Source: an uncultured Candidatus Saccharibacteria bacterium
Lineage (GTDB): Bacteria; Patescibacteriota; Saccharimonadia; CAILAD01; BJGX01
Length of the DNA: 64,000 bases
Assembly (NCBI GenBank): GCA_964610335.1
Contig: CAZSVP010000001.1
Span: 351,442-415,441 of the forward strand
Reading direction: 5' to 3'
Shown: one piece after another, positions 14,086 through 54,378 of the stretch
Layout: every line of letters starts with the position of its first letter
How positions within the stretch are numbered: position 1 is the stretch's first letter
Notes under the pieces: model-generated
Told to the model about the DNA's origin: nothing
The model's input: the letters and a program-made list of their open reading frames with translations, nothing else
Databases searched by the model: none
Program-made: the position numbers and the translations under genes

Positions 14086-14477
14086 GGGGCTGACTAGCTT
14101 CGACATGTGGATCTTGAAATGTACTGGCAAACCGGGTTGAGCTACACGTTAGCTGGCTCACCAAAACTTAAGTGCCAAATCACTTATGCGCGACCTCGTC
14201 AATGCCGTTAAGGTTAACGAGCTAGCACCAGCTTACGCTTAATTGCGCTAAGCCGTTCAATACCTGACATCAGATAGGGTTGCGAGCGACACTTTTCTGA
14301 TTGCTCTTGGTTAGTCCCTCCATGGCCAAGCTAAGCTGAAGACAGGGGAAGCGGAGTACTGTTTTTGTTTGATCTCTCGATGTACTTTGCTTTTAAAACC
14401 AATCAGATCTGACTATGTTTGTAGAAGGTACATTCAATGCCATGTGGACGAGGGTGCGATTCCCTCCAGCTCCACCA
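14086..14477 (+). ncRNA. ssrA: transfer-messenger RNA (tmRNA, one-piece)
   Basis: 5' end GGGGCUGACUAGCUUCGACAUGUGG matches the conserved tmRNA acceptor/D-arm. 3' end GGACGAGGGUGCGAUUCCCUCCAGCUCCACCA matches the tRNA-like T-arm and CCA tail. An internal tag reading frame ends ...NELAPAYA followed by TAA at 14240-14242. Confidence 0.85.
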
Positions 14478-25183: not shown

Positions 25184-26017
25184 ATGAAGAATATTGCGAT
25201 TCAAGGACAAGAAGGGTCCTACCATGCCTTGGCTGCCAGCCATATATTCGGCACAGATATTAATCTGATAGCGTGCGATTGGTTTGATAGTGTTTTCACC
25301 AGTGTTGAAGATGATCAGTCAGATTTTGCGATCGTGGCAATAGAGAACTCACTCTCTGGTAGTATTAGTGAAGTATATGATCTGTTACGTCGAGATAGTC
25401 TATCAATAGTGGGCGAGATTTATATGCAAATATCACTTAAGTTGATTGGCTTCCCAGGTACTCGGCTGCAAGATATCAGAAATGTGTACTCTCACCCTGT
25501 AGCAATACTGGAATCCAAGGATTTTTTGCATAGCAAACTTAGTCATGCCGATGTCCATGAGAGAAATGATACTGCCGAGAGTGTAGAGTATGTTGCAAAT
25601 GGCAAAGATAGCAGTTCGGCTGCAGTTGGTTCCAGCGCCGCCGCCAAACTGTATAATTTGGCAGTGTTAGCAGACGATATTGAGACTGATAAACATAACT
25701 ACACGCGGTTTATTGTGTTATCAAAAACCAAGTTAACAGATAAGACAACTAATAAAACCAGCTTACTATTGACTGTAAAAGATCAGCCCGGCGTACTTTA
25801 TAGCATCTTGGGAGTATTCGCGAATCGACATATCAATCTAAGTAAGATTGAGTCCAGGCCAATAATTGGCAAAACCTGGAATTACTACTTTTATCTGGAT
25901 TTTGATGCTGGGATGCAAGATGTAAACGCTAACGGAATATTAGAAGAGTTAAGCAAGTTTACAGATCAACTAACGGTTTTGGGTAGCTACCGTAAAGGTG
26001 AAGTTGTCGAAGACTAA
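25184..26017 (+). CDS. pheA: prephenate dehydratase
   Basis: PDT catalytic domain (IAIQGQEGSYHALAA...) with a C-terminal ACT regulatory domain. Confidence 0.85.
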   Translation: MKNIAIQGQEGSYHALAASHIFGTDINLIACDWFDSVFTSVEDDQSDFAIVAIENSLSGSISEVYDLLRRDSLSIVGEIYMQISLKLIGFPGTRLQDIRNVYSHPVAILESKDFLHSKLSHADVHERNDTAESVEYVANGKDSSSAAVGSSAAAKLYNLAVLADDIETDKHNYTRFIVLSKTKLTDKTTNKTSLLLTVKDQPGVLYSILGVFANRHINLSKIESRPIIGKTWNYYFYLDFDAGMQDVNANGILEELSKFTDQLTVLGSYRKGEVVED

Positions 26018-29092: not shown

Positions 29093-29488
29093 ATGAGTAT
29101 TCACAAGCCAATAGTATCAATTATTCTAGCCGAGGCTGCTACTTTAATAGTTAGTAGCTGTGTTTTGGCTTACTTAATAGTATCAACTAGCCCAAAACAG
29201 TTGGGACCAGTCGGGGTAACCATCTGGTTTTTGGCATTCTTCGTGGCTTTGTTGAGTCTGGTTAGTTTGGTGACTTTCTCTTGGAGAGTACGTAAAACAT
29301 CACAAAGAGACCGCGCTATATATCATTGGAAGGAGAGTTTAAGGTTTGGTTTGTTAGTGTCGTTTTGTGGGACTGTACTACTTGGTTTGATGAGTTTGAA
29401 GAGCCTTACTATACGTGATATGATCTTATTTATCTTAACTGTAGTATTGATAGAACTGTATTTTCGAACACGTAAGTCAGAAGTATAA
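29093..29488 (+). CDS. small polytopic membrane protein (hypothetical)
   Basis: 131 aa with four hydrophobic segments. Ends 5 nt before pheS. Confidence 0.5.
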   Translation: MSIHKPIVSIILAEAATLIVSSCVLAYLIVSTSPKQLGPVGVTIWFLAFFVALLSLVSLVTFSWRVRKTSQRDRAIYHWKESLRFGLLVSFCGTVLLGLMSLKSLTIRDMILFILTVVLIELYFRTRKSEV

Positions 29489-29492
29489 CCAC

Positions 29493-30476
29493 ATGAATAA
29501 TACTCACGACAATCTGGTCAAAGTGGCCAGCCAAGAGTTGGACAAAGCAAAAAATCGCAACGAGTTGCTAAACTTGAAGAGCAAGTATATAGGAGCTGAT
29601 AGTGCTGTAGCGCAGGCTGTCAGGAATCTGGCCAAAGCGGAGCCTAGTGAGCGCGCACAGCTTGGCAAAGCACTAAATAATGTCAAAAAACAACTGGAAG
29701 AGATGTTTAAAAAAAGACTGGCTGAGTTGGAACTCAAAACTAGTTTCAGCAGCATTGATGTTAGCGCACCAGGCAGAATAGTAGGCCATACCAAAGCTAG
29801 CTTACACCCAACAACCCAGATGTTAGATGAGACATACCAAGTTTTTACAGAACTGGGGTTTGCAATAGTGGACAGTAATGAGATTGAAACTGATTGGTAT
29901 AACTTTGAAGCACTAAACCTACCACCTGAACACCCAGCTCGAGATATGCAAGATACATTCTACATAGACACTGGCAAGCTAGATATGTTGCCGCGAACTC
30001 ATACTTCAGGTATGCAAGTACGATTTATGGAGAATAACGAACCGCCGTTTAAGATTATTGTACCAGGAAAAGTATTTCGCAACGAAGACGAGGATGCCAC
30101 TCATTCGTGGGAATTTTATCAGGTTGAGGGCTTAGTGGTGGGTGAGGACGTAAGTATGTCTGATCTAAAAGGAACTTTGCGAAGGGTAATGCAACGCCTA
30201 CTTGGAGATGATGCCAAAATACGTTTTAGAGCCAATTACTTCCCATACACTGAACCTTCGGTGGAGTTTGATGGCTGGCATAATGGAAAGTGGTTGGAAC
30301 TAGGAGGAGCTGGCATGGTACACCCGCAAGTATTGCGAAATGGGGGAATAGACCCAGATAAGTATAGGGGTTTTGCTTTTGGGTGGGGGCCAGAGAGATT
30401 TGCAGCAATCAAGTTTGGTTTAACCGATATCCGTCAATTGTGGCGGCCAAATCTGCGTTACTTAAGCCAATTTTAA
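29493..30476 (+). CDS. pheS: phenylalanine--tRNA ligase alpha subunit
   Basis: Class II aaRS motifs and the FRANYFPYTEPSVEFD signature. Confidence 0.95.
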   Translation: MNNTHDNLVKVASQELDKAKNRNELLNLKSKYIGADSAVAQAVRNLAKAEPSERAQLGKALNNVKKQLEEMFKKRLAELELKTSFSSIDVSAPGRIVGHTKASLHPTTQMLDETYQVFTELGFAIVDSNEIETDWYNFEALNLPPEHPARDMQDTFYIDTGKLDMLPRTHTSGMQVRFMENNEPPFKIIVPGKVFRNEDEDATHSWEFYQVEGLVVGEDVSMSDLKGTLRRVMQRLLGDDAKIRFRANYFPYTEPSVEFDGWHNGKWLELGGAGMVHPQVLRNGGIDPDKYRGFAFGWGPERFAAIKFGLTDIRQLWRPNLRYLSQF

Positions 30477-30488
30477 CCTGGAACTATT

Positions 30489-33224
30489 ATGAAAGTAAGT
30501 ATTCAATCGCTCAATCAATATCTTAAGCCAAAGCTTAGTACAACAGAGATAACTGTAGCCATAGAGCGAACAGAAATCGAACTAGAGGAGGTCATAACAG
30601 GTCCAACATGGGATAAGTCAATTGTTGTAGCTCGTGTACTTGAAGTACTCCCACACCCCAATGCTGATCGACTCAAATTGGTACTGGTAAGTGATGGTAA
30701 GAAAACATACACTGTTGTGTGCGGAGCTCCAAATGTAAAAGCTGAAATGACGGTGGCTTTGGCACAGCTAGGATCTGTTATGCCAGATGGAACAAATATA
30801 GAAGCAGCTACTATTCGTGGCGAGAAAAGTAACGGTATGCTTTGTTCGGCAGCTGAGTTAGGTATTAGCGATGGCCATAGTGGAATTATGGAGCTTTCCC
30901 CTGACCTACTCTTAGGACAATCATTGTGCGACATAGAGAATTTTGGCGATATCTTAGACATTAAGACCCACCCAAATCGTTGGGACACTATGTCTTTGGT
31001 CGGTTTGGCGCGGGAAATTGCTGCCAATGCATCTAAACCTGTAAAACTGTTAGAGCCAAAATTACAGCAGGTGAGTTATAGTGACAAGGGGAAGGTTAAA
31101 TTAACAAGCACCGCAGAGTGCAGTCATTTTGTGAGTGCGAAGCTGAGTGTCGATAATTCTGGGAAAAGCCCGCAATGGCTTGTGGATAACTTGGAATCCA
31201 ATGGGCTACGTAGTATTAATCCAGTTGTAGATATATCAAACTACGTAATGCTTGAATATGGTCAGCCAAGCCACAGTTATGATGCCGCAAAACTCAATGG
31301 CCAACTATGTGTACGTAGGGCCAAAAAAGCTGAATCACTTCCCTGCTTGGATGGAAAAACTAGGCAGCTTACTGAAGACGACATAGTGATAGCTGATAAT
31401 GCGTCGGTAGTGGGTATTGCAGGTGTAATGGGAGGTGCAACAACCGAAACAAAACCGAACACTAGCGAAATTGTTATGGAGGTAGCGGTATTTGATAAAA
31501 CACTGGTGCGCAAGACAGCACAACGTCATGGTATTCGTACTGAAGCAAGTGCACGATTTGAGCGAGGTTTACCACTCCCCTTGCAGACGCTAGCTTTCGA
31601 GCGCTTAGTTTATTTGTTGCAAGAAATATGCGCAGCCAAATTTGTCGATGGGCCATTTGACCAATTGTATGCTTGGCCATGGATACAATATGTCGGCTTG
31701 AGACTGAGATATGCTGAGAGTGTGTTGGGTATGGATCTTGATGAGAAGATCGTGATCGATGGTTTGCGAAGGCGTGGATTTGAGGTCGAACACTTTTCAC
31801 TCAGTAGTGAAGCTAAGGAGCATATAGGTAAGCCGTACAAGTATGGCGCTAGTTTTCGGATTGATGGTGAGGCTGCATTTGACTGTTCGTATTTGACGGA
31901 ACGCATATATTGCAAGATAGGGATACAGATCGGGCATACGGCTGCGCAACAGTACAAGAACGGGTCAGAAATCGATGATTCAAATCTAAAACCTGGTGAT
32001 TTATTGTTTGTGAAGGGTGGTATTAAAGACACCAAGCTTGCCAAAGCTCGCAACAATATTGGGCATGTTGGCATGTATATGGGCGGCAACAAAGTTCTTG
32101 AAGCAAAACAATCAGTTGGAAAGGTGGCCTTCACTACCCTTTCTGAGTTTCAGAAGCGAAAAGGCTACATAGGTGCACGACGGTTTGTTCCCAGCTTTAA
32201 TCATATCCTTGCTGTGGTGGTGCCATGGTGGCGCGCAGATATAGTGCTTGAAGAAGATCTAATAGAAGAGGCTGCCAAAATTGTAGGTTACGATAGTATG
32301 CCCGACACACTATCACTGTTGCCACCCACACCCACTGGCGATCATCAACAACTTCTGCGACTACTAGAGCTAAAGAAACAGTTGGTAGCAATCGGAGCCC
32401 AGGAAGTTGCTACTTACTCATTTGTGAGCGTTGATGCACTGAAACTGGTTGGTGGAGATGTGGTGAATGCTATAGAAATTGTCAATCCACTGCAAAAAGA
32501 GCAGGCGCTAATAAGGACAGAAACCCTACCAAGCCATTTGCAGGTGGTGCGCAATAACCAAAGTGATATGGACCAAAGCATCTTTTTTGAGATTACCAAA
32601 CTTCAAACTTGGTCCAAAAAACCTTCAATTGTAGACGAACAGTGGTACTTGGCTATAACCGCTATGGGTGAACAAAGCTATGCTCAGGTGAAGGCAGTGG
32701 TAGATTCGTTGGAATCATTTTGGGGGATGGAGTTTCTGGTAAGCCGTTGTAGCATACCTACACTGATTGAGGGTCGGCAGGCTAGTTTGGGCGTAGATGG
32801 CAAACCAGTAGGGACTATTGGGCAGATCCACCCCACTGTGCTCACGGAATTTGGTATCAAAAGAGAAGTATCACATGCGCAGGTATGCCTGAGTAAGATG
32901 CTTGAGACTGAGATATTGAAAACAGTGCAACCACTTCCCTCTTATCCTTTGATTGTGCGATCATTGACTGTTGAATGCAATGAAGCTTGTTTGTGGCAGC
33001 CAATCCAAAAATCCTTACAAAAGCATGATTTTGTTGTTTCGGCTGAGTATGTTGGCGAATACCAAGACGAACAACTAGCCAAACAATCAACCAAGCGTAT
33101 CAGCATGAAGCTATTGATGGACTTGGGTGACAAGGCAGAACAAGTTGCTATAGACCAAGCACTGTCCAAAGCAATTGATGGATTGCGTAAGCTCACTGGT
33201 ATGTCTGATTTGAAAATTTGCTAG
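30489..33224 (+). CDS. pheT: phenylalanine--tRNA ligase beta subunit carrying an internal NlpC/P60-like domain insertion
   Basis: tRNA-binding OB domain, B3/4, B5, the PWWRADI...EEDLIEEAAKIVGYD block and an FDX-like C-terminus. Between the B5 domain and the PWWRADI block (about nt 31800-32190) there is an extra segment with NlpC/P60 Cys-His signatures (FDCSYLTERIY ... NIGHVGMYMGGNKVLEA). Confidence 0.85.
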   Translation: MKVSIQSLNQYLKPKLSTTEITVAIERTEIELEEVITGPTWDKSIVVARVLEVLPHPNADRLKLVLVSDGKKTYTVVCGAPNVKAEMTVALAQLGSVMPDGTNIEAATIRGEKSNGMLCSAAELGISDGHSGIMELSPDLLLGQSLCDIENFGDILDIKTHPNRWDTMSLVGLAREIAANASKPVKLLEPKLQQVSYSDKGKVKLTSTAECSHFVSAKLSVDNSGKSPQWLVDNLESNGLRSINPVVDISNYVMLEYGQPSHSYDAAKLNGQLCVRRAKKAESLPCLDGKTRQLTEDDIVIADNASVVGIAGVMGGATTETKPNTSEIVMEVAVFDKTLVRKTAQRHGIRTEASARFERGLPLPLQTLAFERLVYLLQEICAAKFVDGPFDQLYAWPWIQYVGLRLRYAESVLGMDLDEKIVIDGLRRRGFEVEHFSLSSEAKEHIGKPYKYGASFRIDGEAAFDCSYLTERIYCKIGIQIGHTAAQQYKNGSEIDDSNLKPGDLLFVKGGIKDTKLAKARNNIGHVGMYMGGNKVLEAKQSVGKVAFTTLSEFQKRKGYIGARRFVPSFNHILAVVVPWWRADIVLEEDLIEEAAKIVGYDSMPDTLSLLPPTPTGDHQQLLRLLELKKQLVAIGAQEVATYSFVSVDALKLVGGDVVNAIEIVNPLQKEQALIRTETLPSHLQVVRNNQSDMDQSIFFEITKLQTWSKKPSIVDEQWYLAITAMGEQSYAQVKAVVDSLESFWGMEFLVSRCSIPTLIEGRQASLGVDGKPVGTIGQIHPTVLTEFGIKREVSHAQVCLSKMLETEILKTVQPLPSYPLIVRSLTVECNEACLWQPIQKSLQKHDFVVSAEYVGEYQDEQLAKQSTKRISMKLLMDLGDKAEQVAIDQALSKAIDGLRKLTGMSDLKIC

Positions 33225-33261
33225 CATAGCTTAAGCCCAAGCAGTATAATAAGTTTATCTT

Positions 33262-34749
33262 ATGACGGAGTCGACTAAATATAAACATTTTTTGAGTTTG
33301 CCCAAAGGACTGAGTAAATCTGGCCAAAAACCAAATGCTTATGCCCGTATTGGGTTTGTGTTGGTTGGTATAGTTTTGGCTGTGTTAAGCCTAAATACTT
33401 TGGTTGCAGCAGTGACAGAGGGGGTGATATATCCGGGGGTTAGTGTGGCCGGCACCGACCTGAGCTTCAAAACTCGAGCTCAGGCATTGGAAATCCTACG
33501 TCAGAAGAGTGGTAGTCGCAGTGTAACCGTCAAGATCGGACAAGACAAAAGTATCACGGCCGGCAATAATGATTTTGGGGCAAGTTACGACCCTATTGAG
33601 ACGGTAGAGGTTGCCTATAGCGTTGGTCGAAACAGCCCTATAGCGTTACTAGGAATGTTGGATGCTCAGAAGAGAGGCACTCTAGGATTGGCATACCGCT
33701 TTGATCAAGCTCAACTTAAGAAGTTTGCTGCTGAGGCGGTAGGTAGCAATGGCAAAGATCCGGTCAATGCGACCATTGCAATTACTGATGGGGTGGCGGC
33801 AGTAGTTGATGATCAGCCAGGCGTACAGCTCGACCCCAATAAGTTGGCAGCGGTTCTTACTCAGGCAATGAGTGATGGTCAAGATACTGTGGTAAGCATT
33901 GAGCCAAGCCCTGTAGCTGCCCCTATCCAGAGGCAACAGGCGGCAGCAGTGTTAGGTAAAGTCGAAGACTTACTGAATCGTTCTATAACACTCAATTATC
34001 AAGGCAAGGTGTTTAGCCCAAGTAAAGTCGATATTGGGCACTGGCTGATATTTCAACCAGTTGTGGACGGAGGAAACAAAGAGTTACGTGTAGAGATTTC
34101 TCGAGCCCAGATACAAGGCTATCTACAATCAGTTGCCAATCAGGTAGATGTAGCTCCCACGAATCGCAAAGTGACAGTACTTAACGGTCAAGAGTCTGAA
34201 ACTCAGCCCGGCAAGGACGGCTCGGCAATCAATCAGCAATCAGCCACTGATGCTATTTATACCGCTATGTCAAACAATCAAAACACCACAGTTGCCTTGA
34301 CGAGTGGCCCAATTCCATTCAAAACTGAGTACAAACGTGTTGGTGGTGCAATCGGTGGCTTGGACGCGGCACAGTATATCGAGATCAACTTGAGCACGCA
34401 GCAGCTGTTTGCATGGCAAAATGGGCAAGTCGTGTTTACGTCTCCTGTGGTGACTGGCAAAGACTCTGCGCCCACGGTCACCGGTGTGTTTGCTATCTAT
34501 GCCAAAGAGCGCAATCGCTATCTCAATGGTGCTCCATATGGGTATGATTACAATGTATTTGTAAGCTATTGGATGCCGTTCGTGGGAGGCTATGGCTTAC
34601 ATGATGCTACCTGGCGACCACCTTCTTGGTTTGGCACACAGGCATTTCACTACAATGGGAGCCATGGCTGTGTAAATATGCTGACTGGTGCTGCGGCATT
34701 CATATGGAGTTGGGCTCCGGTTGGCACACCAGTATGGGTTCATAACTAG
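33262..34749 (+). CDS. L,D-transpeptidase (YkuD domain) with an N-terminal membrane anchor
   Basis: C-terminal YkuD catalytic motif (YNGSHGCVNM), an N-terminal TM helix, and a middle peptidoglycan-binding-like region. Confidence 0.8.
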   Translation: MTESTKYKHFLSLPKGLSKSGQKPNAYARIGFVLVGIVLAVLSLNTLVAAVTEGVIYPGVSVAGTDLSFKTRAQALEILRQKSGSRSVTVKIGQDKSITAGNNDFGASYDPIETVEVAYSVGRNSPIALLGMLDAQKRGTLGLAYRFDQAQLKKFAAEAVGSNGKDPVNATIAITDGVAAVVDDQPGVQLDPNKLAAVLTQAMSDGQDTVVSIEPSPVAAPIQRQQAAAVLGKVEDLLNRSITLNYQGKVFSPSKVDIGHWLIFQPVVDGGNKELRVEISRAQIQGYLQSVANQVDVAPTNRKVTVLNGQESETQPGKDGSAINQQSATDAIYTAMSNNQNTTVALTSGPIPFKTEYKRVGGAIGGLDAAQYIEINLSTQQLFAWQNGQVVFTSPVVTGKDSAPTVTGVFAIYAKERNRYLNGAPYGYDYNVFVSYWMPFVGGYGLHDATWRPPSWFGTQAFHYNGSHGCVNMLTGAAAFIWSWAPVGTPVWVHN

Positions 34750-34751
34750 AT

Positions 34752-34780
34752 TTTTACGCATTCAGCATAACTGGTATAAT
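34752..34780 (+). promoter_or_regulatory. promoter with an extended -10 upstream of the 34.8-57 kb surface/ATPase block
   Basis: TTTTAC, a 17-nt spacer, TGgTATAAT, and an AGGAG RBS 7 nt before the ATG at 34801. Confidence 0.45.
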
Positions 34781-34800
34781 AGTAGATTAGGAGTATTCAG

Positions 34801-35238
34801 ATGCCCCCAGTAACGCCTGCTGAAAAAAAACCAAATCAACCACCTGTAGAAAGGCAGCCAGCAGCGCTTCCTACTGAACAGTTGCCCAAAACAGAGCAGC
34901 AGCCTTCTGGTGCAGAACAGGCACCAGCTGCCGCCGAGCAACCGCAGAGCGCACCGGCTGCACCAGTCCAACAGCCTGCCCAGATAGCACAGCCAGTCCA
35001 ACAGCCTGTGTCGCTGCAAACACCGCCGGACGATCCAGTGGCTGCTGTGATTCAACAAAAGACCGCCAATCTTACTGCCGATGATGTCGACTTGATTGAG
35101 AAAGAATGGGTTGATGTAGTTGATGATACCATTGAGAAAACCAAGGACGATCCAGAAATTGAAGAACGTGCTCAACAGGAGCTCAACAAGGCATACCTCA
35201 AAAAGCGCTTTAATCTAGATGTGGACTCAAGTGAATGA
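34801..35238 (+). CDS. Pro/Gln/Ala-rich acidic protein (hypothetical)
   Basis: 145 aa. PAxxQP-type low-complexity N-terminus and an acidic C-terminus. Overlaps the start of the downstream ATPase by 4 nt. Confidence 0.5.
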   Translation: MPPVTPAEKKPNQPPVERQPAALPTEQLPKTEQQPSGAEQAPAAAEQPQSAPAAPVQQPAQIAQPVQQPVSLQTPPDDPVAAVIQQKTANLTADDVDLIEKEWVDVVDDTIEKTKDDPEIEERAQQELNKAYLKKRFNLDVDSSE

Positions 35239-37739
35239 ATGATTTTGTGATATTTATGAGCATATTGTTCGCGTTGTTCGTGATAGCAGTTATATTTGTG
35301 GCGTTTTTTATATATCGCAAGATAGTGCGACGCAGTAAGCAGGTTGAGCGCTCACTCAAATTCGTACCGCTTCTTATCAAACTACCCCCGCAAGAAGTCA
35401 ATGAAGCCCAGAATCGTGATGAACGCGAGATGATGAAAGAAAATATTTCCAAGGCTGAGCAAGTTTTCAATTTGCTATCTGGAATAGTAAGTGAGAAAGC
35501 TGAGGTTTACGGTCGTCGCTACATTAGTTTTGAAATTATCGCTGAGGCTAAGAGGATATATTTCTATGTCTCTGTGCCGGCTAGTCTGATTTCAACTGTA
35601 TCGAAGGCTTTGGCTGCCGGTTATCCAGGTGTCCAAGTGATCCGTAAGGAAGAAATCAACTTATTTTCACAGGTTAGCAAGATTGCTGGTGTAGCAGGTG
35701 GTGAGCTCAAGCTGGCCAAAGATAGCATCATGCCGATCAATACTTACAAAAACGCCGAACGTGACGCGATGTCTGGTATGTTGGCGGGTTTGTCGAACCT
35801 TTCTGAGGGTGATGCTGCAGCTATTCAGATGTTGGTCCGTCCTGCCCCCTATCGCTGGGTAAAACGAGCCCACAGGCGTGCCAAATACTACTATACAAAC
35901 AAGAAGACTGGCTTTGCCCCCAAGGCCATGGACTTTGCTGGCGAAGCAATTCGCTCACCGCTTGGTACCAAAGATACTGAACAGAAAGATTACGTACCAA
36001 ACGAGCTAGACAAGAAGAAGGCTGAACTAGTAGAAGAGAAGGTAAAAGTACCTGCTTTTGAAACCACCATACGACTAGTTGCGAGTTCAGACGACCCATC
36101 ACGATCCAAACTAATTTTGCAAGATATGCTGCTGGGGTTTGCTCAGCTAGCCCAAAACGATGCCAACCGGTTTAAATTTGTCAAAGCTGATTCACCACAG
36201 GAGCTTGCGACCAACTTTATTTTTCGGTTTTTCAAGGAGAATACCTTCTTTGCTCATCAGATGATACTTAACTCCACTGAGTTGGCAACAATATTTCATC
36301 TACCAAGCGAACTACTCGACTTGGCTACGCCGATTGAGCGCAAGGGTAGCAAGGAGGTTCCTGCACCGACTGGGATGCCAGCTGCTGGGCTGTTGTTGGG
36401 AACCAATGTCTATCGGGCTACCCAAACGCCTATATATTTGAGTGAAAACGACCGTCGACGACACCTGTACTTCATTGGTCAAACTGGTACAGGTAAATCA
36501 ACCTTCTTGGAGAACTTGATGCTGCAAGATGCCATAGCCGGTCGAGGCTTTGCATTTATCGACCCGCATGGCGACACTGCTGAAAAGATGCTTGGCATGA
36601 TACCACCCGAACGTGCCGAGGATGTAATTTACTTTAGTCCAGGTGACACCGAGGTACCGCTTGGGTTCAATATGATGGAATACGACCCAGATAAGCCAGA
36701 GCAAAAAGACTTCTTGATCCAAGAAGCTATTCAGATGCTTTACAAACTCTATGATCCTCAGCATCAGGGTATCATCGGTCCACGCTATGAACACTGGTTT
36801 CGTAACGCTGCATTGACTGTTATGGCTGATCCCGAGGGTGGTACTTTTATAGAAATACCCAAGGTGTTTACTGACGATGAATATCTCAAGAAGAAGTTCC
36901 GATTTGTGACAGACCCAACCGTCCAAGACTTTTGGACTGGCGAGATGGCACAGACCGATGCCCATAGCAAGAGTGAGATGCTTGGCTGGTTTGTGAGTAA
37001 GTTTGGTGCTTTTGCCAACAACGAGATTATGCGTAACATCATTGGTCAGAAGCACTCGGCATTTAAGTTTCGCGATGTGATGGATAGTAACAAGATCTTG
37101 CTTGTGAACCTCAGTAAGGGTTTGCTTGGTGATCTCAATGCCAAGTTGCTTGGTATGATCATGGTGATTAAGTTCCAGATGGCAGCTATGAGCCGAGCTG
37201 ATACGCCAGAAGAAGAGCGACCAGATTTCAGTGTATATGTCGATGAGTTTCAAAACTTCAGTACTGATAGCTTTGCTACTATTCTTTCTGAGGCCCGCAA
37301 ATACCATCTCAACTTGATTGTTGCCAATCAGTTTATCTCTCAGCTCGACGAACAAGTAAGAGATGCCGTGTTTGGCAATGTTGGCTCTCTAATATCATTT
37401 AGAGTTGGTGCCGACGATGCTGAGTATATGGAGAAGCAATTCCAGCCCCAGTTTGATAAACACGATCTCATAAATATACCCAACTTCAAGGTTGTGTCTA
37501 AGATCATGGCCAACAATGTACCGACCACACCGTTCTCGATGGACTGTCTACCTGCGATAGGTACACCCAATGCTGAGATTTTGCAGGCTATGAAAGACTT
37601 GTCACGTAGTAAGTATGGGCGTCCTAAGAGCGAGGTAGCGGCTGAGATTATTCATAGTCTCGACTCTGGTAGCTATGGTGATCCTCAGGTGGGTCAAACA
37701 GTTTCTACTGGTATGGGACGAGACAATTCACATAACTAG
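35235..37739 (+). CDS. type IV secretion-type P-loop ATPase (VirB4/VirD4/TraG superfamily) with an N-terminal TM anchor
   Basis: N-terminal TM helix. Walker A FIGQTGTGKST followed by IDPHGD. Walker B VYVDEFQNF. C-terminal ANQFISQL...FRVGADDAEY block typical of conjugative coupling/VirB4 ATPases. Confidence 0.7.
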   Translation: MNDFVIFMSILFALFVIAVIFVAFFIYRKIVRRSKQVERSLKFVPLLIKLPPQEVNEAQNRDEREMMKENISKAEQVFNLLSGIVSEKAEVYGRRYISFEIIAEAKRIYFYVSVPASLISTVSKALAAGYPGVQVIRKEEINLFSQVSKIAGVAGGELKLAKDSIMPINTYKNAERDAMSGMLAGLSNLSEGDAAAIQMLVRPAPYRWVKRAHRRAKYYYTNKKTGFAPKAMDFAGEAIRSPLGTKDTEQKDYVPNELDKKKAELVEEKVKVPAFETTIRLVASSDDPSRSKLILQDMLLGFAQLAQNDANRFKFVKADSPQELATNFIFRFFKENTFFAHQMILNSTELATIFHLPSELLDLATPIERKGSKEVPAPTGMPAAGLLLGTNVYRATQTPIYLSENDRRRHLYFIGQTGTGKSTFLENLMLQDAIAGRGFAFIDPHGDTAEKMLGMIPPERAEDVIYFSPGDTEVPLGFNMMEYDPDKPEQKDFLIQEAIQMLYKLYDPQHQGIIGPRYEHWFRNAALTVMADPEGGTFIEIPKVFTDDEYLKKKFRFVTDPTVQDFWTGEMAQTDAHSKSEMLGWFVSKFGAFANNEIMRNIIGQKHSAFKFRDVMDSNKILLVNLSKGLLGDLNAKLLGMIMVIKFQMAAMSRADTPEEERPDFSVYVDEFQNFSTDSFATILSEARKYHLNLIVANQFISQLDEQVRDAVFGNVGSLISFRVGADDAEYMEKQFQPQFDKHDLINIPNFKVVSKIMANNVPTTPFSMDCLPAIGTPNAEILQAMKDLSRSKYGRPKSEVAAEIIHSLDSGSYGDPQVGQTVSTGMGRDNSHN

Positions 37740-37810
37740 AGTAGATGCTACTTGCAACAGAGTAGTGATTCGTACTACAATCGATAGCAAATGATAATGA
37801 GGGTACCAAC

Positions 37811-40132
37811 TTGATAAACTTCCAGGATATTGTAACTTCTGTTTCGACCGGCAAACTTTCGCCAGGTAGAATTGGCTACTATGTAAAACGTCTCGCGGCC
37901 GAGACTGCTACCCGCAGGATAGCCAGCATTTTTATTATCGGTCTTCTGGTATTCCAGATTTTTACATTCTTGGCCCCACCAAAGCCAAGCTTTGCGGCTA
38001 GTCCTGGGTTTGACTTAATATCTGGTGCGCCATTTAGTAAAGATTCTCTTATAAGTGCTGTTTGGGATCAGAACCGTGATGGTATTCAACAGGTCTTCAA
38101 CAGGCTAGGTATTTCAAGGCAGAAGATGGAAGCTGCTGGTGTTGGTCCTTGTGCAGCAGAGGGTGACAATTGGATATCGATGGGGCGCAGCCAAGATGGT
38201 GCTGGTAGCTCAGTCCAGTGGCAAGAGGGTATCTGGGTTGGATCATCTATAAACAGATGGGGTAATGCTTATACAAACGATGGTAACTGTATCCAGGCGC
38301 TGCGTGGGCTAGGAGACAAAGTTTATGTATCCGATGGCGGACCTGGTATACCAGCTGGTTGGTATGAATGGGGCGTATTGCTCGATTGCGGTAATATTGT
38401 GCTTAAACCTACTGAGCCACCTCCTAATCCCAAGAGCTTTAGTTGCCAGTCTGTAAACATATCTGCAACAAGTGTAGTAGTAGGACAACCAGTTGTGGTG
38501 GCAGGTTATGCTCATGGTGAGAACGTCTCACAAGGTGAGAGAGTAGACATGGTATACGGATCATATAGTGGAGGTAATCTGCTCGCTACTCAGTCTTCGG
38601 CTGGCGTAGGCCCCCCAGACGGTAACAACAACTTTATAGATGATAGCGGTAAGTCATTTACTTTTAACGATCCAGGAACTTACGAAATAGCGTTAGTGGT
38701 ATTCTACGATGTCGACGGTACAAAATACTTCGCATCAGGTAGTGGAAATGGCGAATGTAAAAGAACTATTACTGTTACACCTCAGCCTAAGCCGCATACA
38801 CTAGTTTGTGGAGGCTTAGATATGGTAAATAGTGGCGGTAACTTCACTTATCAAGCACCGCATACACCGCTCATCAAAGGTACTGCATTGCAAGAAGGTG
38901 ATTCTGGTCCAGAAGTGTATGCCAAACGATTTCTATACCTGTTGCTCAAGGAAGTGCCAAGTGGAGGGTCTGTGCAACATGGTGGGAAGCAGTACATAGA
39001 GATCAATGCCAACAATCGCATACTGCACTCATATCCAACACAGAATACTCGTGTAGATCCGCTTGCTAGTGCACCCAACCCAGCGGCCTTTGCCGCAACC
39101 CAGTTTGCCCAGAATAGCGCTGGAAGTTTCTTGATCCTGCTGCGAGTATCTTCTGAAAACTCTGGCGACAACAACTTCGCTCCAGACACAAACAGTTGTG
39201 CCGTGCCGTTTGTAGTAACCCCTCAACCCAAGGACATCATGTGTGTTGACTTGACTGCTAGCCCACTCACTGGCGACACAGTACCAGTAGAGGTAACATT
39301 CAATGCCAAAGGTGGTGCACAAAACACTACGATCAAGGAATACCAATTTGACTTCGGTGATGGTAACAAACAAACAGTAACAAGTGGCAAGTTTGCTGAA
39401 ACGCTCAAACACACTTATCAAAGTGGTGGCAAATATACTGCTAAGGTTACAGTTGTGGGCACCGACCCGGGTGTGACATCGAGCAAGCCAAGCTGTACTG
39501 TGCAACTTAAGTTTGAACAACACGTGTTCCGCAAGACAGTCAAGAATCTAACAATTCTTACACAAGATGGTAAACCAACCGATGCCAATGGCGCGACTGC
39601 ACGGCCAGGAGATAAGCTAACCTACACTATAGGCATTGCCAACATAGGAAGTGCTCCTATAAAAGACTATGTGTTTAAGGACGACATATCTGATATATCA
39701 CTTTATGCTGATGTAATAGACAAAGGTGGTGCTGAGCTCTCGGTAGAAGCAACTCACGTGTTACTAACCTGGCCAGCGGTGGATATCCCAGTTACGACCG
39801 ATCCGAACAATCCTACTTATGTTACCAAAAGCTTTACTGTACAGGTAAAAGATCCAGTTCCAACCAATGCACAGAAGCCTACTGACAATAAGAACTATGA
39901 TTGTCAGATGGAAGACCAGTTTGAAGGTAATATAGTGATCACACCAATTAGTGTAAACCCAGCTAAGCGGCTAGAGTGTGTTGTGGCTCCTCTGCCACAG
40001 ACTGGTGCTGCCACTAGCCTAATAGTGATGGGATTGCTTGCTGCCCTATCAGTATTCTTACTACTACGCAATCGACTTATGAAACGCGAACTTGATCTAT
40101 TGGAAACACTAAATGAAGGAGCTAAAAGCTAA
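37811..40132 (+). CDS. LPxTG-anchored cell-surface protein with PKD-like and DUF11-like repeat domains
   Basis: N-terminal signal/TM helix. PKD-like motif YQFDFGDGNKQ...HTYQSGGKYTAKVTV. DUF11-like motif GDKLTYTIGIANIGSAPIKDY. C-terminal LPQTG, a hydrophobic helix and an RNRLMKR tail (sortase sorting signal). TTG start inferred. Confidence 0.8.
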   Translation: MINFQDIVTSVSTGKLSPGRIGYYVKRLAAETATRRIASIFIIGLLVFQIFTFLAPPKPSFAASPGFDLISGAPFSKDSLISAVWDQNRDGIQQVFNRLGISRQKMEAAGVGPCAAEGDNWISMGRSQDGAGSSVQWQEGIWVGSSINRWGNAYTNDGNCIQALRGLGDKVYVSDGGPGIPAGWYEWGVLLDCGNIVLKPTEPPPNPKSFSCQSVNISATSVVVGQPVVVAGYAHGENVSQGERVDMVYGSYSGGNLLATQSSAGVGPPDGNNNFIDDSGKSFTFNDPGTYEIALVVFYDVDGTKYFASGSGNGECKRTITVTPQPKPHTLVCGGLDMVNSGGNFTYQAPHTPLIKGTALQEGDSGPEVYAKRFLYLLLKEVPSGGSVQHGGKQYIEINANNRILHSYPTQNTRVDPLASAPNPAAFAATQFAQNSAGSFLILLRVSSENSGDNNFAPDTNSCAVPFVVTPQPKDIMCVDLTASPLTGDTVPVEVTFNAKGGAQNTTIKEYQFDFGDGNKQTVTSGKFAETLKHTYQSGGKYTAKVTVVGTDPGVTSSKPSCTVQLKFEQHVFRKTVKNLTILTQDGKPTDANGATARPGDKLTYTIGIANIGSAPIKDYVFKDDISDISLYADVIDKGGAELSVEATHVLLTWPAVDIPVTTDPNNPTYVTKSFTVQVKDPVPTNAQKPTDNKNYDCQMEDQFEGNIVITPISVNPAKRLECVVAPLPQTGAATSLIVMGLLAALSVFLLLRNRLMKRELDLLETLNEGAKS

Positions 40133-45542: not shown

Positions 45543-47882
45543 GTGGACGGACAAACAAACACGCAAAATGTTTCTGTTGAACAGGCTACGTTTTCTGGTC
45601 AGTTGCAAAACCAATCTAGTGGGGCAACGGCTTCAGTTGATAATACTGAGATAGCCAGACTACATCGCCGTAATCGTTTTTTTCAAGCGCTTTGGATAGC
45701 GGCGGGTATTTTATTACTTCTGCTATTTGCGACGGCGTCAATATTGATATGGCGAAATCGCTCGCAAGTATCCCAGCTGACCAATGCATCGGAGCGCTAT
45801 AAGCCTGTAAATCTCAATCTTTCTGGCCAGCCATTGCAAACTGGTTTGCAAGGTGTACTGGCGGTCAATGGCGATATTACGGCTACTGGTACTGTTAGCG
45901 CTGCTAACTTGCAGGGTAGTGGTAGCGGTATTACTGACTTGCAGGCCAACAACATCGTCGGTGTACTTCAACCAGGTCAGCTTGATCCATTTATAGCCTA
46001 CACCAACAAGAACTTCCAGGCCTTCACAGGTACCAATCAAGTATTTCGTAACAGTTCCAACTCAGTATCGGCATTTTCTGTCCAAAACGCATCGGCCGCA
46101 CCAGTTTTGAGCGTGAGTACGGCCAGTAACTTTGTAGGAGTTAATACAAGTGTGCCATCTGTTACAGGCCTAAGCCTGGAGGTGAATGGTACTGCCAAAG
46201 TTGATAACTATCTATTGGTGGGGGCACAGTCAACACCAAACACATCAATTCTTGATACTGGTCCACTATTCTCAAACGATGATATACAAAGAATCCTAGC
46301 CGTTCAACAAATATCATCAAACAATCCAAATGCAAACAGCATATTTGTGGGTACTGCCAATGAGCTACTAGCCAACCCCCAATACGATCCCGTTATTCTG
46401 GGCTCTTTTCTTGGGTTTACTACCGTAGCTGGTGGTAACAAAAATATATATGCAGGCAGCTATTCTGCTTTGCAAACAGATAAGACAAATTCCAAGGATT
46501 TCTATCTAAATGGTGGTGTTATGAACTCAGTTACTCATTCAGGTAGCGGAACCGTATTTATGCAAGCTGCTCAACTCAATACTGTTGCCAATCTCGGTGC
46601 GGGGGAAATCGCTTATGCTTTTGGTAGTGCGACTATCCCAGTTACTTACAATGGCCCAGGTACTCCTGTAAACTATATGCAATTCTACTCAGGCAATACT
46701 ATTGTTGATCCTCAAGATCCCTCACTTGGTTTTCTAGGTTTTCCCACCATATACCAAGCTGGCTCAATTGGTCGACAAGTAGGTATAGATATCCAATATC
46801 AACAAAGCGGTACAATAGGAAGCGCCAATCTAGTATCTGAAGGATATTTGAGTAAGAATTACTTTGAAGGGAATGTGTCTATTGGCTCTTGTGCAGCCAA
46901 TCTTACACCGAGTTCAATTCTTGGGACTACTGCTTGTATAACTGGTCTCGATCCAATTCCAGGGGGTAATAAGTTGTCAGTGAACACTTCGGCGCCTTCG
47001 ACTGCCTCAGCTCACATTAATACTGCTGTAGCATCAGATAAGGCGTTGGTGGTCAAAGGAGTTACCAGCCAAACAGGTAATCTTACTGAGTGGCAAAACT
47101 CATCTGGGACAGCACTTAGTAGAGTAACTGCCGACGGGTCATTTAATATTGGCTCAGGCGCGCCGACTAATCGGCTTAGTGTTGTTGATACTTCCGACGA
47201 TACAGTAGCTAACTTCACAGGTTTTACCCAAACCTGTACCGTAGATACATCAGGCGCTGGTGGCTGGTCTTGTTCTTCAGACGAGCGTCTCAAAGAGAAT
47301 ATCGTGAAATTGGATGGTGGCCTCGATACGATTATGCAACTGCGAGGGGTCACATATAACTTCAAGAGCAATCCAGACGGAGACGCAATTGCTGGATTTG
47401 TTGCTCAGGAGGTTGAGAAAATACTGCCTGGGTTAGTTGCTACCGGAGCTGATGGTTATAAATCTCTCAATAAGGACGGTCTAATCCCCTACCTTGTCAG
47501 TGCTATCCAGGATCAACAAAAACAAATTGATACTCTTAAGAATCCGGCCGGAGGAGTAAGTGTGGATGTGCTCAAGACTCTCGCCGACAGCAAAGCCGTG
47601 GAATTTGGTGGTGACTTGACTGTGAATGGTAGCGTGATTATTAAGGGTACATTGGCTGGCAATGTCAATACTCGTGGTACGGTAGTGATTCCGGCTGGCC
47701 AGACATCTGGTGGCTATAGTTTTACTACTGCGTACTCGAAGACTCCAAATATAGTAGTAAGCCCAAGCTCTGATACCGGTGGTCGGTATTGGCTTAAGAG
47801 TAAATCTGCTAGTGGATTTACAGTAGAGCTCGAAGCCGCTCAAGCTACAGATGTAAAATTCGATTGGCAAGCCCAAGAATAG
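45543..47882 (+). CDS. membrane-anchored tail-fibre-like surface protein with a C-terminal intramolecular-chaperone (peptidase S74-like) domain, paralog 1
   Basis: N-terminal signal-anchor (FFQALWIAAGILLLLLFATASILIW). Long Gly/Asn/Thr/Ser-rich repeats. C-terminal SCSSDERLKENIVKLDGGLDTIMQLRGVTYNFK...GFVAQEVEKILPGLV, matching the self-cleaving chaperone domain of phage tail fibres/tailspikes. Confidence 0.8.
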   Translation: MDGQTNTQNVSVEQATFSGQLQNQSSGATASVDNTEIARLHRRNRFFQALWIAAGILLLLLFATASILIWRNRSQVSQLTNASERYKPVNLNLSGQPLQTGLQGVLAVNGDITATGTVSAANLQGSGSGITDLQANNIVGVLQPGQLDPFIAYTNKNFQAFTGTNQVFRNSSNSVSAFSVQNASAAPVLSVSTASNFVGVNTSVPSVTGLSLEVNGTAKVDNYLLVGAQSTPNTSILDTGPLFSNDDIQRILAVQQISSNNPNANSIFVGTANELLANPQYDPVILGSFLGFTTVAGGNKNIYAGSYSALQTDKTNSKDFYLNGGVMNSVTHSGSGTVFMQAAQLNTVANLGAGEIAYAFGSATIPVTYNGPGTPVNYMQFYSGNTIVDPQDPSLGFLGFPTIYQAGSIGRQVGIDIQYQQSGTIGSANLVSEGYLSKNYFEGNVSIGSCAANLTPSSILGTTACITGLDPIPGGNKLSVNTSAPSTASAHINTAVASDKALVVKGVTSQTGNLTEWQNSSGTALSRVTADGSFNIGSGAPTNRLSVVDTSDDTVANFTGFTQTCTVDTSGAGGWSCSSDERLKENIVKLDGGLDTIMQLRGVTYNFKSNPDGDAIAGFVAQEVEKILPGLVATGADGYKSLNKDGLIPYLVSAIQDQQKQIDTLKNPAGGVSVDVLKTLADSKAVEFGGDLTVNGSVIIKGTLAGNVNTRGTVVIPAGQTSGGYSFTTAYSKTPNIVVSPSSDTGGRYWLKSKSASGFTVELEAAQATDVKFDWQAQE

Positions 47883-47904
47883 TTGTTTTAGTCTTCCAAA
47901 GCCC

Positions 47905-48504
47905 TTATACTACTAACATAACAGCTTTGGAAGAGCGTGGAACAACAGAGTAATACAACACAACAACCCCAATACGAGGAAGTAGATAAGAAGTCACATT
48001 GGCTCATCTGGCTATTAGTCGGTTTAGCAGCCCTCTTTCTTGTAATCATAATTATCTTACGTGGTCTCTGTACTGATGTATGGTATATCCGGATGCTTGG
48101 TCTCAATGATCGCTGGTGCCCATCACCTGCTAGTAGTTTGGTCGGTAAGACAGATCTTGCTGATGGTAGTGTGACTGGTAAGAAGGTAGCCTCTGAGACT
48201 ATTACTGTCAGCAACCTTTCTCAACCCATCCAGCAGTTCATTACCAACACCGAGCAAACACTTCAGCAAATAACTCAACAAATCTCTCAGGTATCCAATG
48301 TCCCTGGCCCTGCTGGCCCAGTCGGTGCCACTGGTTTGCAAGGTGCTACCGGTCCAACTGGAGCTACCGGTGCAACTGGTGCCACTGGCCCTCCCGGACC
48401 AGCTGAGCCGATTACTTCCAATGTTCTCAACTCAGCTGGCAACTCTCTAGACTCTACTGTCAATGGAGTGGGCTCTAATGTAGTGAGTATTATTAATTCG
48501 AATA
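47905..48504 (+). repeat. direct repeat copy A (about 600 bp, near-identical to 51289-51888): leader plus the 5' 190 codons of a fibre paralog
   Basis: Direct reading shows matching sequence from atactactaacataacagctttggaagagcgtggaacaac... through ...gtgagtattattaattcgaata at an offset of 3384 bp. Confidence 0.85.
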
Positions 48505-51269: not shown

Positions 51270-51288
51270 ATATCATACGCAGTAGTTG

Positions 51289-51888
51289 TTATACTACTAA
51301 CATAACAGCTTTGGAAGAGCGTGGAACAACAGAGTAATACAACACAACAACCCCAATACGAGGAAGTAGATAAGAAGTCACATTGGCTCATCTGGCTATT
51401 AGTCGGTTTAGCAGCCCTCTTTCTTGTAATCATAATTATCTTACGTGGTCTCTGTACTGATGTATGGTATATCCGGATGCTTGGTCTCAATGATCGCTGG
51501 TGCCCATCACCTGCTAGTAGTTTGGTCGGTAAGACAGATCTTGCTGATGGTAGTGTGACTGGTAAGAAGGTAGCCTCTGAGACTATTACTGTCAGCAACC
51601 TTTCTCAACCCATCCAGCAGTTCATTACCAACACCGAGCAAACACTTCAGCAAATAACTCAACAAATCTCTCAGGTATCCAATGTCCCTGGCCCTGCTGG
51701 CCCAGTCGGTGCCACTGGTTTGCAAGGTGCTACCGGTCCAACTGGAGCTACCGGTGCAACTGGTGCCACTGGCCCTCCCGGACCAGCTGAGCCGATTACT
51801 TCCAATGTTCTCAACTCAGCTGGCAACTCTCTAGACTCTACTGTCAATGGAGTGGGCTCTAATGTAGTGAGTATTATTAATTCGAATA
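51289..51888 (+). repeat. direct repeat copy B (about 600 bp)
   Basis: See copy A. The two copies diverge immediately after aattcgaata. Confidence 0.85.
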
Positions 51889-54326: not shown

Positions 54327-54378
54327 ACATCTGCATCTGGTAGCTGCTATACTACTACCATAACAACTTTGGAAGAGT

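Follow-up and report, generated by a model that had tools for sequence, protein, structure and literature searches.

A cysteine amidase-type NlpC/P60 domain with preserved active-site residues inside the phenylalanyl-tRNA synthetase beta subunit of Saccharibacteria

In the window analysed here, a 64,000-nucleotide (nt) stretch of contig CAZSVP010000001.1 from an uncultured Candidatus Saccharibacteria bacterium (nt coordinates below are positions in this window), the gene pheT for the beta subunit of phenylalanyl-tRNA synthetase (PheRS) encodes an NlpC/P60 domain that is embedded in the B5 domain of the protein. By all sequence and fold criteria tested, the insert is a bona fide NlpC/P60 domain and its host a bona fide PheT, and the fusion covers a large part of the Saccharibacteria as well as some other Patescibacteria. 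Judging from the residues conserved in the insert, we consider it somewhat probable (about 0.55) that the domain is an active cytoplasmic gamma-D-glutamyl amidase, carried as an accessory activity by an otherwise normal PheRS, repeatedly lost, and most plausibly acting on murein peptides.

As had been stated in an earlier note on this DNA, the window encodes a PheT of 911 amino acids (aa), and the peptides quoted in that note are all in place (IVIDGLRRRGFEVEH at aa 421-435, FDCSYLTERIYCKIG at aa 464-478, NIGHVGMYMGGNKVLEAKQ at aa 523-541, PWWRADI at aa 579-585 and EEDLIEEAAKIVGYD at aa 588-602). The gene is one unbroken open reading frame (ORF) of 911 codons, in which B5 picks up in frame after the insert, and its product reaches 543 bits against TIGR00472 (pheT_bact; cutoff 402.65), which identifies it as a bacterial PheRS beta equivalog. 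Pfam places tRNA_bind at aa 45-144, B3_4 at aa 220-381, NLPC_P60 at aa 447-564, B5 at aa 572-601 and CLM at aa 605-799, i.e., the complete PheT domain set (tRNA_bind, B3_4, B5 and CLM) is found, with B5 interrupted. The editing residues His262, Glu331 and Ala353 align with His265, Glu334 and Ala356 of E. coli beta; all of 63 insert-bearing relatives have the equivalent of His262, and at least 90% retain those of Glu331 and Ala353. To judge from its sequence, the synthetase part looks fully canonical. Since the canonical editing residues are intact, the insert is no substitute for editing; replacement of a degenerate editing site is ruled out by the same residues, and the earlier suggestion of an editing-related module is disfavored, also by a pocket that looks specific for gamma-D-Glu (see below).

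The insertion point was established by alignment to solved PheRS beta chains, in which residues 434 and 576 of the window protein pair with residues 438 and 446 of E. coli beta. About 141 residues thereby stand in for a hairpin loop of ~7 residues within B5. In structure models obtained with AlphaFold2 (AF2), the first half of B5 consists of a strand (400-405), two helices (406-413 and 419-428) and a second strand (432-435), and the Pfam B5 profile, which has 67 positions, matches only with positions 38-67, at aa 572-601. The earlier note had correctly recognized an extra module of about 130 aa (31800-32190, corresponding to aa 438-568; aa 436-572 by our delimitation) but had located it after B5, while it actually sits inside this domain; the PWWR...EEDLIEE block, taken for the region that follows B5, is in fact its second half. 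As a description, the term domain shuffle used in the note is apt. In the class of inserts to which the window protein belongs, the junctions lie between EH and FSL and between NFNH and ILA, with FDI and LDDY found in other lineages.

Several searches agree on the nature of the insert. Pfam NLPC_P60 matches with 63.5 bits in the full protein and with 69 bits when the segment is taken alone (gathering cutoff 23), and the NCBIfam models listed for this segment are all NlpC/P60 endopeptidases. Among PDB sequences, 33 NlpC/P60 chains were matched, with the diffocin hub-hydrolase CD1368 at the top (2.7e-14), and in these matches the FDCS and GHVG motifs of the insert align with the catalytic Cys and His. 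The AF2 model of whole PheT, built with 63 homologues, has a mean predicted local distance difference test (pLDDT) value of 89 and ~92 over the insert, and the junctions are free of low-confidence linkers; a model of the piece comprising B5 and insert reaches a pLDDT of 93.5 and a predicted template modelling (pTM) score of 0.86, with ~92-96 for the insert over both models. A pTM of this height for a two-domain piece points to a fixed mutual orientation of B5 and insert. Foldseek found 62 matches in the PDB at E<=1e-3, the top 50 listed all being NlpC/P60 structures with the papain-like alpha+beta fold. Single-domain targets superimpose with template modelling scores normalized to the target, TM(target), of 0.7-0.84 and root-mean-square deviations (rmsd) of ~2-2.6 A, the best match being Acd24020 from C. 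difficile (7cfl; E 4e-10, TM(target) 0.84, rmsd 2.6 A). The top matches are throughout NlpC/P60 hydrolases of peptidoglycan and further include CD1368, MepS, CwlO, LytE, RipA/B, YkfC and the non-catalytic RipD (4jxb). The NlpC/P60 assignment of the earlier note and the catalytic Cys and His contexts named there are thus borne out by profile, sequence and predicted fold.

The residues of the putative active site are listed in Table 1. The triad reads Cys466-His526-Glu538; Cys and His had been anticipated, while the third residue is Glu538 and not the His or Asn that had been expected. The spacing from His to Glu is that from His432 to Glu444 in RipA (mutant entries 4q4n and 4q4t). For YkfC in its L-Ala-gamma-D-Glu complex, Tyr226 has been described as catalytic, and the S1 pocket as composed of Trp228, Asp237, Ser239 and a small residue at position 257, while Arg255 forms a conserved network and the subfamily-specific Asp256 binds L-Ala at its free amine together with a tyrosine of the SH3b domain (PMC2954226). 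By motif position, the set of residues for the gamma-D-Glu (S1) pocket is present in the window protein (Tyr450, Tyr452, Asp465, Ser467 and Ala485), and His483 and Thr484 occupy the positions of Arg255 and Asp256.

Table 1. Coordinates of the PheRS genes, the inserted domain with its predicted active-site residues, and the downstream neighbor in the window
Feature	Position (nt)	Strand	Basis
pheS, PheRS alpha subunit, 327 aa	29493..30476	+	Pfam tRNA-synt_2d (308 bits) and Phe_tRNA-synt_N
pheT, PheRS beta subunit, 911 aa with the insert counted; stop codon TAG at 33222-33224	30489..33224	+	TIGR00472, Pfam, AF2
B3/B4 editing domain with His262 (31272-31274), Glu331 (31479-31481) and Ala353 (31545-31547)	31146..31631	+	Alignment to E. 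coli beta
N-terminal half of B5, aa 398-435, ending in strand GFEVEH	31680..31793	+	Aligns up to E. coli beta 438
Inserted NlpC/P60 (C40) domain, aa 436-572, ~137 aa; junctions (E)HFSL... and ...GARRFxxSFNH	31794..32204	+	Pfam PF00877, Foldseek
Tyr450 (GKPY motif), equivalent of YkfC Tyr226 (transition-state and gamma-D-Glu contact)	31836..31838	+	Motif mapping
Asp465-Cys466-Ser467; nucleophile Cys466 (TGT, 31884-31886), Asp and Ser in the S1 site	31881..31889	+	Alignment to solved NlpC/P60 enzymes including CD1368 and Acd24020
His483-Thr484-Ala485, equivalent of YkfC Arg255-Asp256-Ser257 (LPRDS motif)	31935..31943	+	Motif mapping
Catalytic His526 (GHVG motif)	32064..32066	+	Alignment to catalytic His of PDB matches
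Third triad residue Glu538, 12 residues past His526	32100..32102	+	VLEAKQ aligns with FLHAPQ of CD1368 (third His)
C-terminal half of B5, aa 573-601, ILAVVVPWWRADIVLEEDLIEEAAKIVGY	32205..32291	+	Pfam B5 profile; aligns from E. coli beta 446
L,D-transpeptidase (PG_binding_4 and YkuD), downstream neighbor	33262..34749	+	Pfam

With full-length PheT as query, 120 close relatives were listed as 90%-identity clusters (41-99% identity). Nearly all of them have 870-950 aa, most carry PF00877 beside the PheT domains, and the named ones belong to Candidatus Saccharibacteria. In a MAFFT alignment, 120 of these 120 relatives have 106-171 residues at the insertion site. Conservation of the active site was followed in the resulting set of 121 sequences (the window protein and its 120 relatives), 100 of which are intact with respect to Cys and His and 21 degenerate. 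Of the 121, 101 retain Cys466 and 102 retain His526, and ~83% of the close relatives keep Cys, His and the gamma-D-Glu pocket residues together. Within the 100 intact inserts, the equivalents of Tyr226 and Asp237 are Tyr and Asp without exception, that of Ser239 is Ser in 93, the position of Trp228 (Tyr452 in the window) is always aromatic or hydrophobic (Trp in 63) and only A, C, S or T occur at the equivalent of position 257. Where the insert is degenerate (21 sequences), pocket and catalytic residues decay jointly, e.g., the Tyr is deleted in 14.

Two positions are more variable. The third position of the triad is Q, E or H in 79 of the 121 sequences and M or T in 27. A large subgroup (P0024, P0030, P0034, P0046 and others; loci L010-L018) contains an insert of 170 residues with an extra loop of ~27 residues just before the catalytic His, and Met or Thr at the third position mostly occurs in this variant, in which a Cys-His dyad would be sufficient or a different residue would step in. 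The equivalent of the network Arg255 is His in 78 and Arg in 16 of the 100 intact inserts; a conserved His (GHTA motif) has taken its place in inserts from Saccharimonadia, and Arg is retained in distant inserts from Patescibacteria and in 16% of the close ones. This swap suggests a lineage-specific change of the pocket. At the position of Asp256, where the window protein has Thr484, Thr is present in 81 of the 100.

Outside the circle of close relatives, a pattern derived from an alignment of 5 sequences was scanned over one genome per GTDB species. It returned 43 loci with the full B5-NlpC/P60-B5 arrangement, all in metagenome-assembled genomes (MAGs) of Saccharibacteria, Saccharimonadia or Patescibacteria except for one labelled Nanoarchaeia; a single Micrococcales locus matched the normal C-terminal B5 motif only. 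The exceptional locus (L035, DATIHE010000064.1), titled 'Candidatus Nanoarchaeia archaeon', bears a bacterial, Saccharibacteria-type block of membrane ORF, pheS and pheT with NlpC/P60 domain, and its archaeal title is probably a binning or taxonomic labelling error. The same-site insert, for which the earlier note had proposed a survey of related genomes, is accordingly present in the 120 listed relatives and in 43 species-level loci. An exhaustive HMMER search covered 1.84 billion 50%-identity representatives. Of the best 150 PheTs listed, 3 are incomplete at the site; among the 147 that could be scored, 35 carry more than 100 inserted residues there and 112 a loop of 5-28 residues. The inserts fall into three junction classes, namely that of the window (EHFSL...NFNHI), a second one from Saccharimonadia (FDI...LDDY) and a distant one with other junctions, surrounded mostly by PheTs without insert that are named Patescibacteria, Parcubacteria or Moranbacteria. 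Two distant insert-bearing PheTs, P0300 (1006 aa) and P0301 (1049 aa), exceed the others by 70-140 residues, and P0301 lists LRAT (PF04970) beside NLPC_P60; their inserts may be larger or duplicated. Automated annotation registers the Pfam domains of the fusion but calls some copies "C40 family peptidase" or "PheT-related protein". The fusion is clade-wide and old.

A hidden Markov model built from the first two junction classes gave 78-114 bits with the distant inserts and 33-67 bits with the best free-standing NlpC/P60 proteins found among 5.8 billion sequences. Pairwise identities of insert and PheT core are correlated (Mantel r = 0.45; 0 of 2000 permutations reach this value), and the insert is slightly better conserved than the core (mean identity 39% vs. 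36%). Guanine-plus-cytosine (GC) content is level through the insert and equal to that of the gene, and no repeats were found in a search of the regions flanking the insert. Judged by these comparisons, the inserts are one family that is vertically inherited. Recent transfer or a mobile element is ruled out by the flat GC content, the absence of flanking repeats and the co-divergence with the host protein. An intein was also rejected, as neither an N-terminal Cys/Ser nucleophile nor a C-terminal His-Asn followed by Cys/Ser/Thr is present and the fold is that of NlpC/P60 and not Hint. More generally, the patchy presence and absence at one precise site might recall a chimeric assembly, a wrongly joined gene, an intein or a mobile sequence inserted recently, an explanation which is as good as refuted by a single uninterrupted ORF with B5 in frame, an architecture found again in over 100 independent clusters and in 43 genomes that stem from many projects, and the flat GC content, lack of flanking repeats and co-divergence just mentioned.

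The patchiness is better accounted for by loss. Trees of the PheT core were calculated by neighbor joining (NJ) with bootstrapping and after removal of the insert columns; as a first NJ tree of 50%-identity representatives had very short internal branches, only bootstrapped groupings were used. Sister groups with and without insert were recovered for P0165/P0253 (99% bootstrap support), P0156/P0209 (96%), P0148/P0149 (97%), a five-member group (92%) and P0197/P0288 (78%). The most eroded insert, a remnant of 106 aa in P0118, is sister to a complete deletion, P0148, with support from 100 of 100 bootstraps. P0148, P0253 and P0170, all of them insert-less, share their syntenic block with the window gene and with P0165, which bears the insert, so that presence and absence of the insert constitute a polymorphism of one orthologous housekeeping locus, which is best explained by repeated clean loss. 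Degenerate inserts, with 106-135 residues in most cases and 106-161 overall, occupy at least ~6 separate places in the tree, which rules out a single loss event for all of them, and some inactivations are recent (P0115, P0117, P0121 and P0122 beside the intact P0086).

For the window gene itself, the ratio of nonsynonymous to synonymous substitution rates (dN/dS) was determined against a relative of 89% identity (dS ~0.85). The insert has a value of 0.061, compared with 0.065 and 0.068 in the two flanks and 0.076 in the editing domain, i.e., the insert is under strong purifying selection, as is the synthetase core. Two antisense ORFs that extend over the insert (31474-31800, minus strand, 108 codons; 31610-32134, minus strand, 174 codons) are backed as genes by nothing and were discounted, since the coding region on the plus strand has a dN/dS of ~0.06. 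Taken together, joint conservation, joint decay and low dN/dS bear the signature of a functional catalytic center that is retained or given up as a whole, with the window protein on the "kept" side. An inactivated structural insertion, as considered in the earlier note, finds no support in the window protein with its intact triad and pocket and its dN/dS of 0.061, though it does apply to ~17% of the relatives.

In those ~17%, which lack Cys and His, an insert of folded size (106-161 aa) is nevertheless kept, and even degenerate inserts show next to no variation, or none, in the junction motifs EHFS and GARRYxxNFNH. These features, the rigid mounting on B5 suggested by the pTM of 0.86, the occurrence of Met or Thr at the third triad position in ~27 of 121 sequences and the presence of the RipD structure 4jxb among the fold matches would all be compatible with a non-catalytic module, i.e., a brace, an interaction surface or a RipD-like ligand-binding domain that senses muropeptides, in which Cys and His are kept by inertia or for binding. 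We consider this unlikely, given that, in intact lineages, nucleophile, His, Tyr and S1 residues have been preserved together at 93-100% across deep divergence and decay jointly once Cys and His are lost, that degenerate inserts shrink, in one lineage to full deletion, as expected once catalysis is gone, and that the dN/dS of the insert equals that of the essential core.

Where the domain acts can be read from the protein as a whole. Alignment to solved PheTs begins at residue 1, i.e., there is no N-terminal extension and hence no apparent signal peptide, and a Pfam scan of PheT found no wall-binding modules (SH3b, LysM). The domain should therefore work in the cytoplasm. Saccharibacteria are an epibiotic lineage that attacks host envelopes, and the nearest relatives of the insert in sequence and fold are secreted autolysins and endopeptidases; it is thus conceivable that PheRS, released by lysis or in vesicles or exported by an unconventional route, moonlights as a lysin that cuts the peptidoglycan of the host (Actinobacteria) or of the cell itself from outside. 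Apart from the lack of a signal peptide, extension or wall-binding module, the position of the domain within a ~100-kDa subunit of a heterotetramer, with no sign of export, renders this highly improbable.

In the scenario we favor, an ancestor would have gained a whole NlpC/P60 (MEROPS C40) cysteine hydrolase domain in an ordinary housekeeping PheT, at a hairpin on the surface of B5. Rigidly held on B5, the insert would act as a second, independent active site, a putative cytoplasmic thiol amidase with a gamma-D-glutamyl-X bond as its target. A substrate with such an amide is what the conserved pocket points to, and in the cytoplasm it would most plausibly be found in stem peptides of peptidoglycan or in forms linked to sugars, nucleotides or precursors. 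As neither Asp256 nor the SH3b features of YkfC are present, a free N-terminal L-Ala should not be needed. The role of the enzyme may lie in turnover or salvage of murein peptides, as is the case for the cytoplasmic NlpC/P60 protein YkfC of Chlamydia, a bacterium with reduced genome, in which it frees meso-diaminopimelate (mDAP) from the tripeptide during peptidoglycan recycling (PMC9928106). The activity would be an accessory one, inactivated at least ~6 times and cleanly deleted several times at the same orthologous locus. In summary, the data establish the architecture, the insertion point, its distribution, purifying selection, repeated loss and the preservation of the entire active site as a unit; we infer catalytic activity, specificity for gamma-D-Glu, murein-peptide substrates in the cytoplasm and independence from PheRS chemistry.

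A number of points weigh against this proposal. Activity and substrate are deduced from residue conservation alone, and the S1 residues were mapped by motif position and not by structural superposition. In about a quarter of the otherwise intact inserts, Met or Thr occupies the third position of the triad. His has replaced the canonical network Arg in the window protein and in 78% of the close relatives; the pocket has thus been altered, and something other than a classical stem peptide may be the substrate. Conservation is stricter at the junctions, which persist in degenerate inserts, than at the catalytic residues, and this hints at a structural contribution as well. No correlation was seen between the catalytic state of the insert and the presence of an adjacent gene for an L,D-transpeptidase, and no genes for recycling of murein peptides occur near pheT, the rest of the window being ordinary housekeeping. 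Finally, the choice of PheRS as host is unexplained; the simplest reading is that a permissive surface hairpin was available on an abundant, constitutively made protein.

Conserved junctions and rigid mounting would also be compatible with a structural contribution or a coupling to PheRS chemistry. For the latter, one might think of a hydrolase or transferase linked to translation, the Cys of which acts on a phenylalanyl or non-cognate aminoacyl ester, be it as an additional editing or deacylase site for aminoacyl-tRNA or aminoacyl-AMP or by passing an acyl group from an LRAT-like acyl-enzyme to an acceptor. The host is always PheT, with the insert at the same site, placement in the beta subunit is rigid, the junctions are highly conserved, and replacement of the canonical Arg in the pocket by a conserved His is compatible with a changed substrate; moreover, the LRAT acyltransferases, whose mechanism involves a thioester, are members of the NlpC/P60 superfamily. 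All the same, we regard such a function as distinctly unlikely: the residues of the B3/B4 editing site are intact, so that a replacement is unneeded, the pocket retains precisely the residues for recognition of gamma-D-Glu, the domain has been repeatedly inactivated or deleted in orthologues with an otherwise unchanged synthetase, and the window protein has no match to LRAT (PF04970) at E<=1. In a more specific version, which we deem very unlikely, the two active sites would be chemically coupled, with Cys466 taking over the aminoacyl group from phenylalanyl adenylate (Phe-AMP) or Phe-tRNA as a thioester and either hydrolyzing it, as a new kind of proofreading, or passing it on in Fem-like manner to an amine of a murein precursor that contains gamma-D-Glu. 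If true, this would explain PheT as constant host, the rigidly conserved junctions and the exchange of Arg for His in the pocket, and the transfer reaction would amount to non-ribosomal aminoacylation of peptidoglycan by the synthetase itself.

The genomic surroundings of the gene are those of its insert-less orthologues. The gene pheS lies 5' of pheT at a distance of 12 nt, and their adjacency is kept across all related loci. Both are part of a block (29093-40132 in the window) that comprises a small membrane ORF, pheS, pheT, the gene for a protein with YkuD and PG_binding_4 domains, an ORF of ~145 aa and a gene for an ATPase of ~830 aa that resembles DUF8128 proteins and coupling proteins of type IV secretion systems (T4SS); the same block is present in loci L001-L043, L045 and L049-L051 and persists down to ~34% PheT identity, with or without insert. 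Most of the 43 loci with the fusion have the gene for the L,D-transpeptidase 3' of pheT, and it likewise occurs beside insert-less orthologues. With this distribution, its adjacency looks like general synteny, and a functional tie between insert and L,D-transpeptidase was rejected, as Cys and His are intact in 4 loci that lack the neighbor and the neighbor also stands beside insert-less pheT. No free-standing NlpC/P60 paralogue is encoded in the window.

Further features of the window are mentioned for completeness. A gene for a PKD-domain protein comes after that for the DUF8128-type ATPase. A few genes 5' of pheST, a prephenate dehydratase with ACT domain is encoded (25184-26017, plus strand, 193 bits), which catalyzes a step of phenylalanine biosynthesis; the Saccharibacteria lineage is generally described as lacking amino acid biosynthesis. 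Four tandem ORFs on the plus strand (45543-57036 overall; 45543-47882, 47937-51269, 51321-54326 and 54379-57036) encode proteins of 779-1110 aa, each with one Peptidase_S74 domain, the intramolecular chaperone of endosialidases and tail fibers, near the C-terminal end and with no other Pfam match. They look like paralogous fiber-like surface proteins, possibly serving host attachment of an epibiont. A gene for transfer-messenger RNA (tmRNA; 14086-14477, plus strand) was found as a full-length Rfam match with 114 bits and is the sole Rfam family above threshold in the window.

Saccharibacteria and other Patescibacteria are ultra-small epibionts that scavenge building blocks from their hosts, and bacterial aminoacyl-tRNA synthetases (aaRSs) are usually regarded as architecturally conservative. 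If the insert is indeed a cytoplasmic gamma-D-glutamyl amidase, it would be a candidate for a missing enzyme of murein-peptide salvage or turnover in these organisms and, if true, an example of how a reduced genome can lodge an accessory enzyme in a loop that tolerates insertion, within a protein that is constitutively expressed. At one orthologous locus, inserts range from intact through inactivated and shrunken to deleted, and this series constitutes a natural comparative experiment, which could reveal the function by correlation with peptidoglycan chemistry, biosynthesis of the diamino acid or host range. On the practical side, the feature causes annotation errors and could double as a lineage marker.

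Among known proteins, the insert most closely resembles secreted NlpC/P60 endopeptidases and autolysins such as Acd24020 (7cfl), CD1368 (8v3w), E. coli MepS, B. subtilis CwlO and LytE and M. tuberculosis RipA, with which it shares the fold (TM(target) <=0.84) and 30-35% sequence identity. It has the Cys-His-polar triad, catalytic Tyr and S1 Asp/Ser pocket of these gamma-D-glutamyl-diamino-acid endopeptidases (C40), and Glu as third residue of the triad as in RipA, for which entries are named after mutants at C383, H432 and E444. These enzymes are free-standing or N-terminally modular, occur as secreted proteins or lipoproteins and have SH3b, LysM or coiled-coil partners, whereas the domain described here is internal to a cytoplasmic aaRS, comes without a wall-binding module and has His in place of the canonical network Arg. 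The best functional analogy may be YkfC from Bacillus and from Chlamydia trachomatis, which acts in the cytoplasm on soluble L-Ala-gamma-D-Glu-diamino-acid peptides (PMC9928106); unlike members of the YkfC/DPP VI subfamily, however, the window protein has Thr484 instead of Asp256 and no SH3b match, which places it outside this subfamily, and its substrate range may differ. Neither does it belong to the LRAT/H-REV107 branch (PF04970), to which no match at E<=1 was obtained with the window protein, P0301 being the only relative that lists this family.

With regard to the host, the surroundings of B5 in PheRS beta are known to be variable, with insertions in human, yeast, H. pylori and archaeal PheT and a split pheT in Altiarchaeales (PMC4975002). 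The same permissive region is concerned here, but those changes are short insertions or a gene fission without any new catalytic domain, and in the present case a foreign enzyme domain of ~137 aa with intact active site has been accommodated. The insertion domain CP1 of LeuRS likewise exemplifies an aaRS hosting an extra, independently folding domain, which in that case edits aminoacyl-tRNA (PMC13114784). The full-text searches of the literature that we performed found no description of a fusion of NlpC/P60 and PheT. A ligase and a cysteine amidase are united in one cytoplasmic polypeptide in glutathionylspermidine synthetase/amidase (Gsp), an ATP-dependent ligase with a papain-like CHAP amidase. 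There, the amidase is N-terminal and reverses the reaction of its own ligase, whereas the insert in PheT is internal and has no evident chemical relation to its host. Domains appended to aaRSs (EMAPII/tRNA_bind, GST-like, WHEP) bind RNA or proteins, and the inserted catalytic domains of aaRSs known to us are editing domains, with no cell-wall-type peptidase among them. What is new here is the architecture, namely a cysteine amidase domain of the cell-wall type, with its active site preserved, inside a bacterial aaRS subunit and maintained across a large uncultivated lineage.

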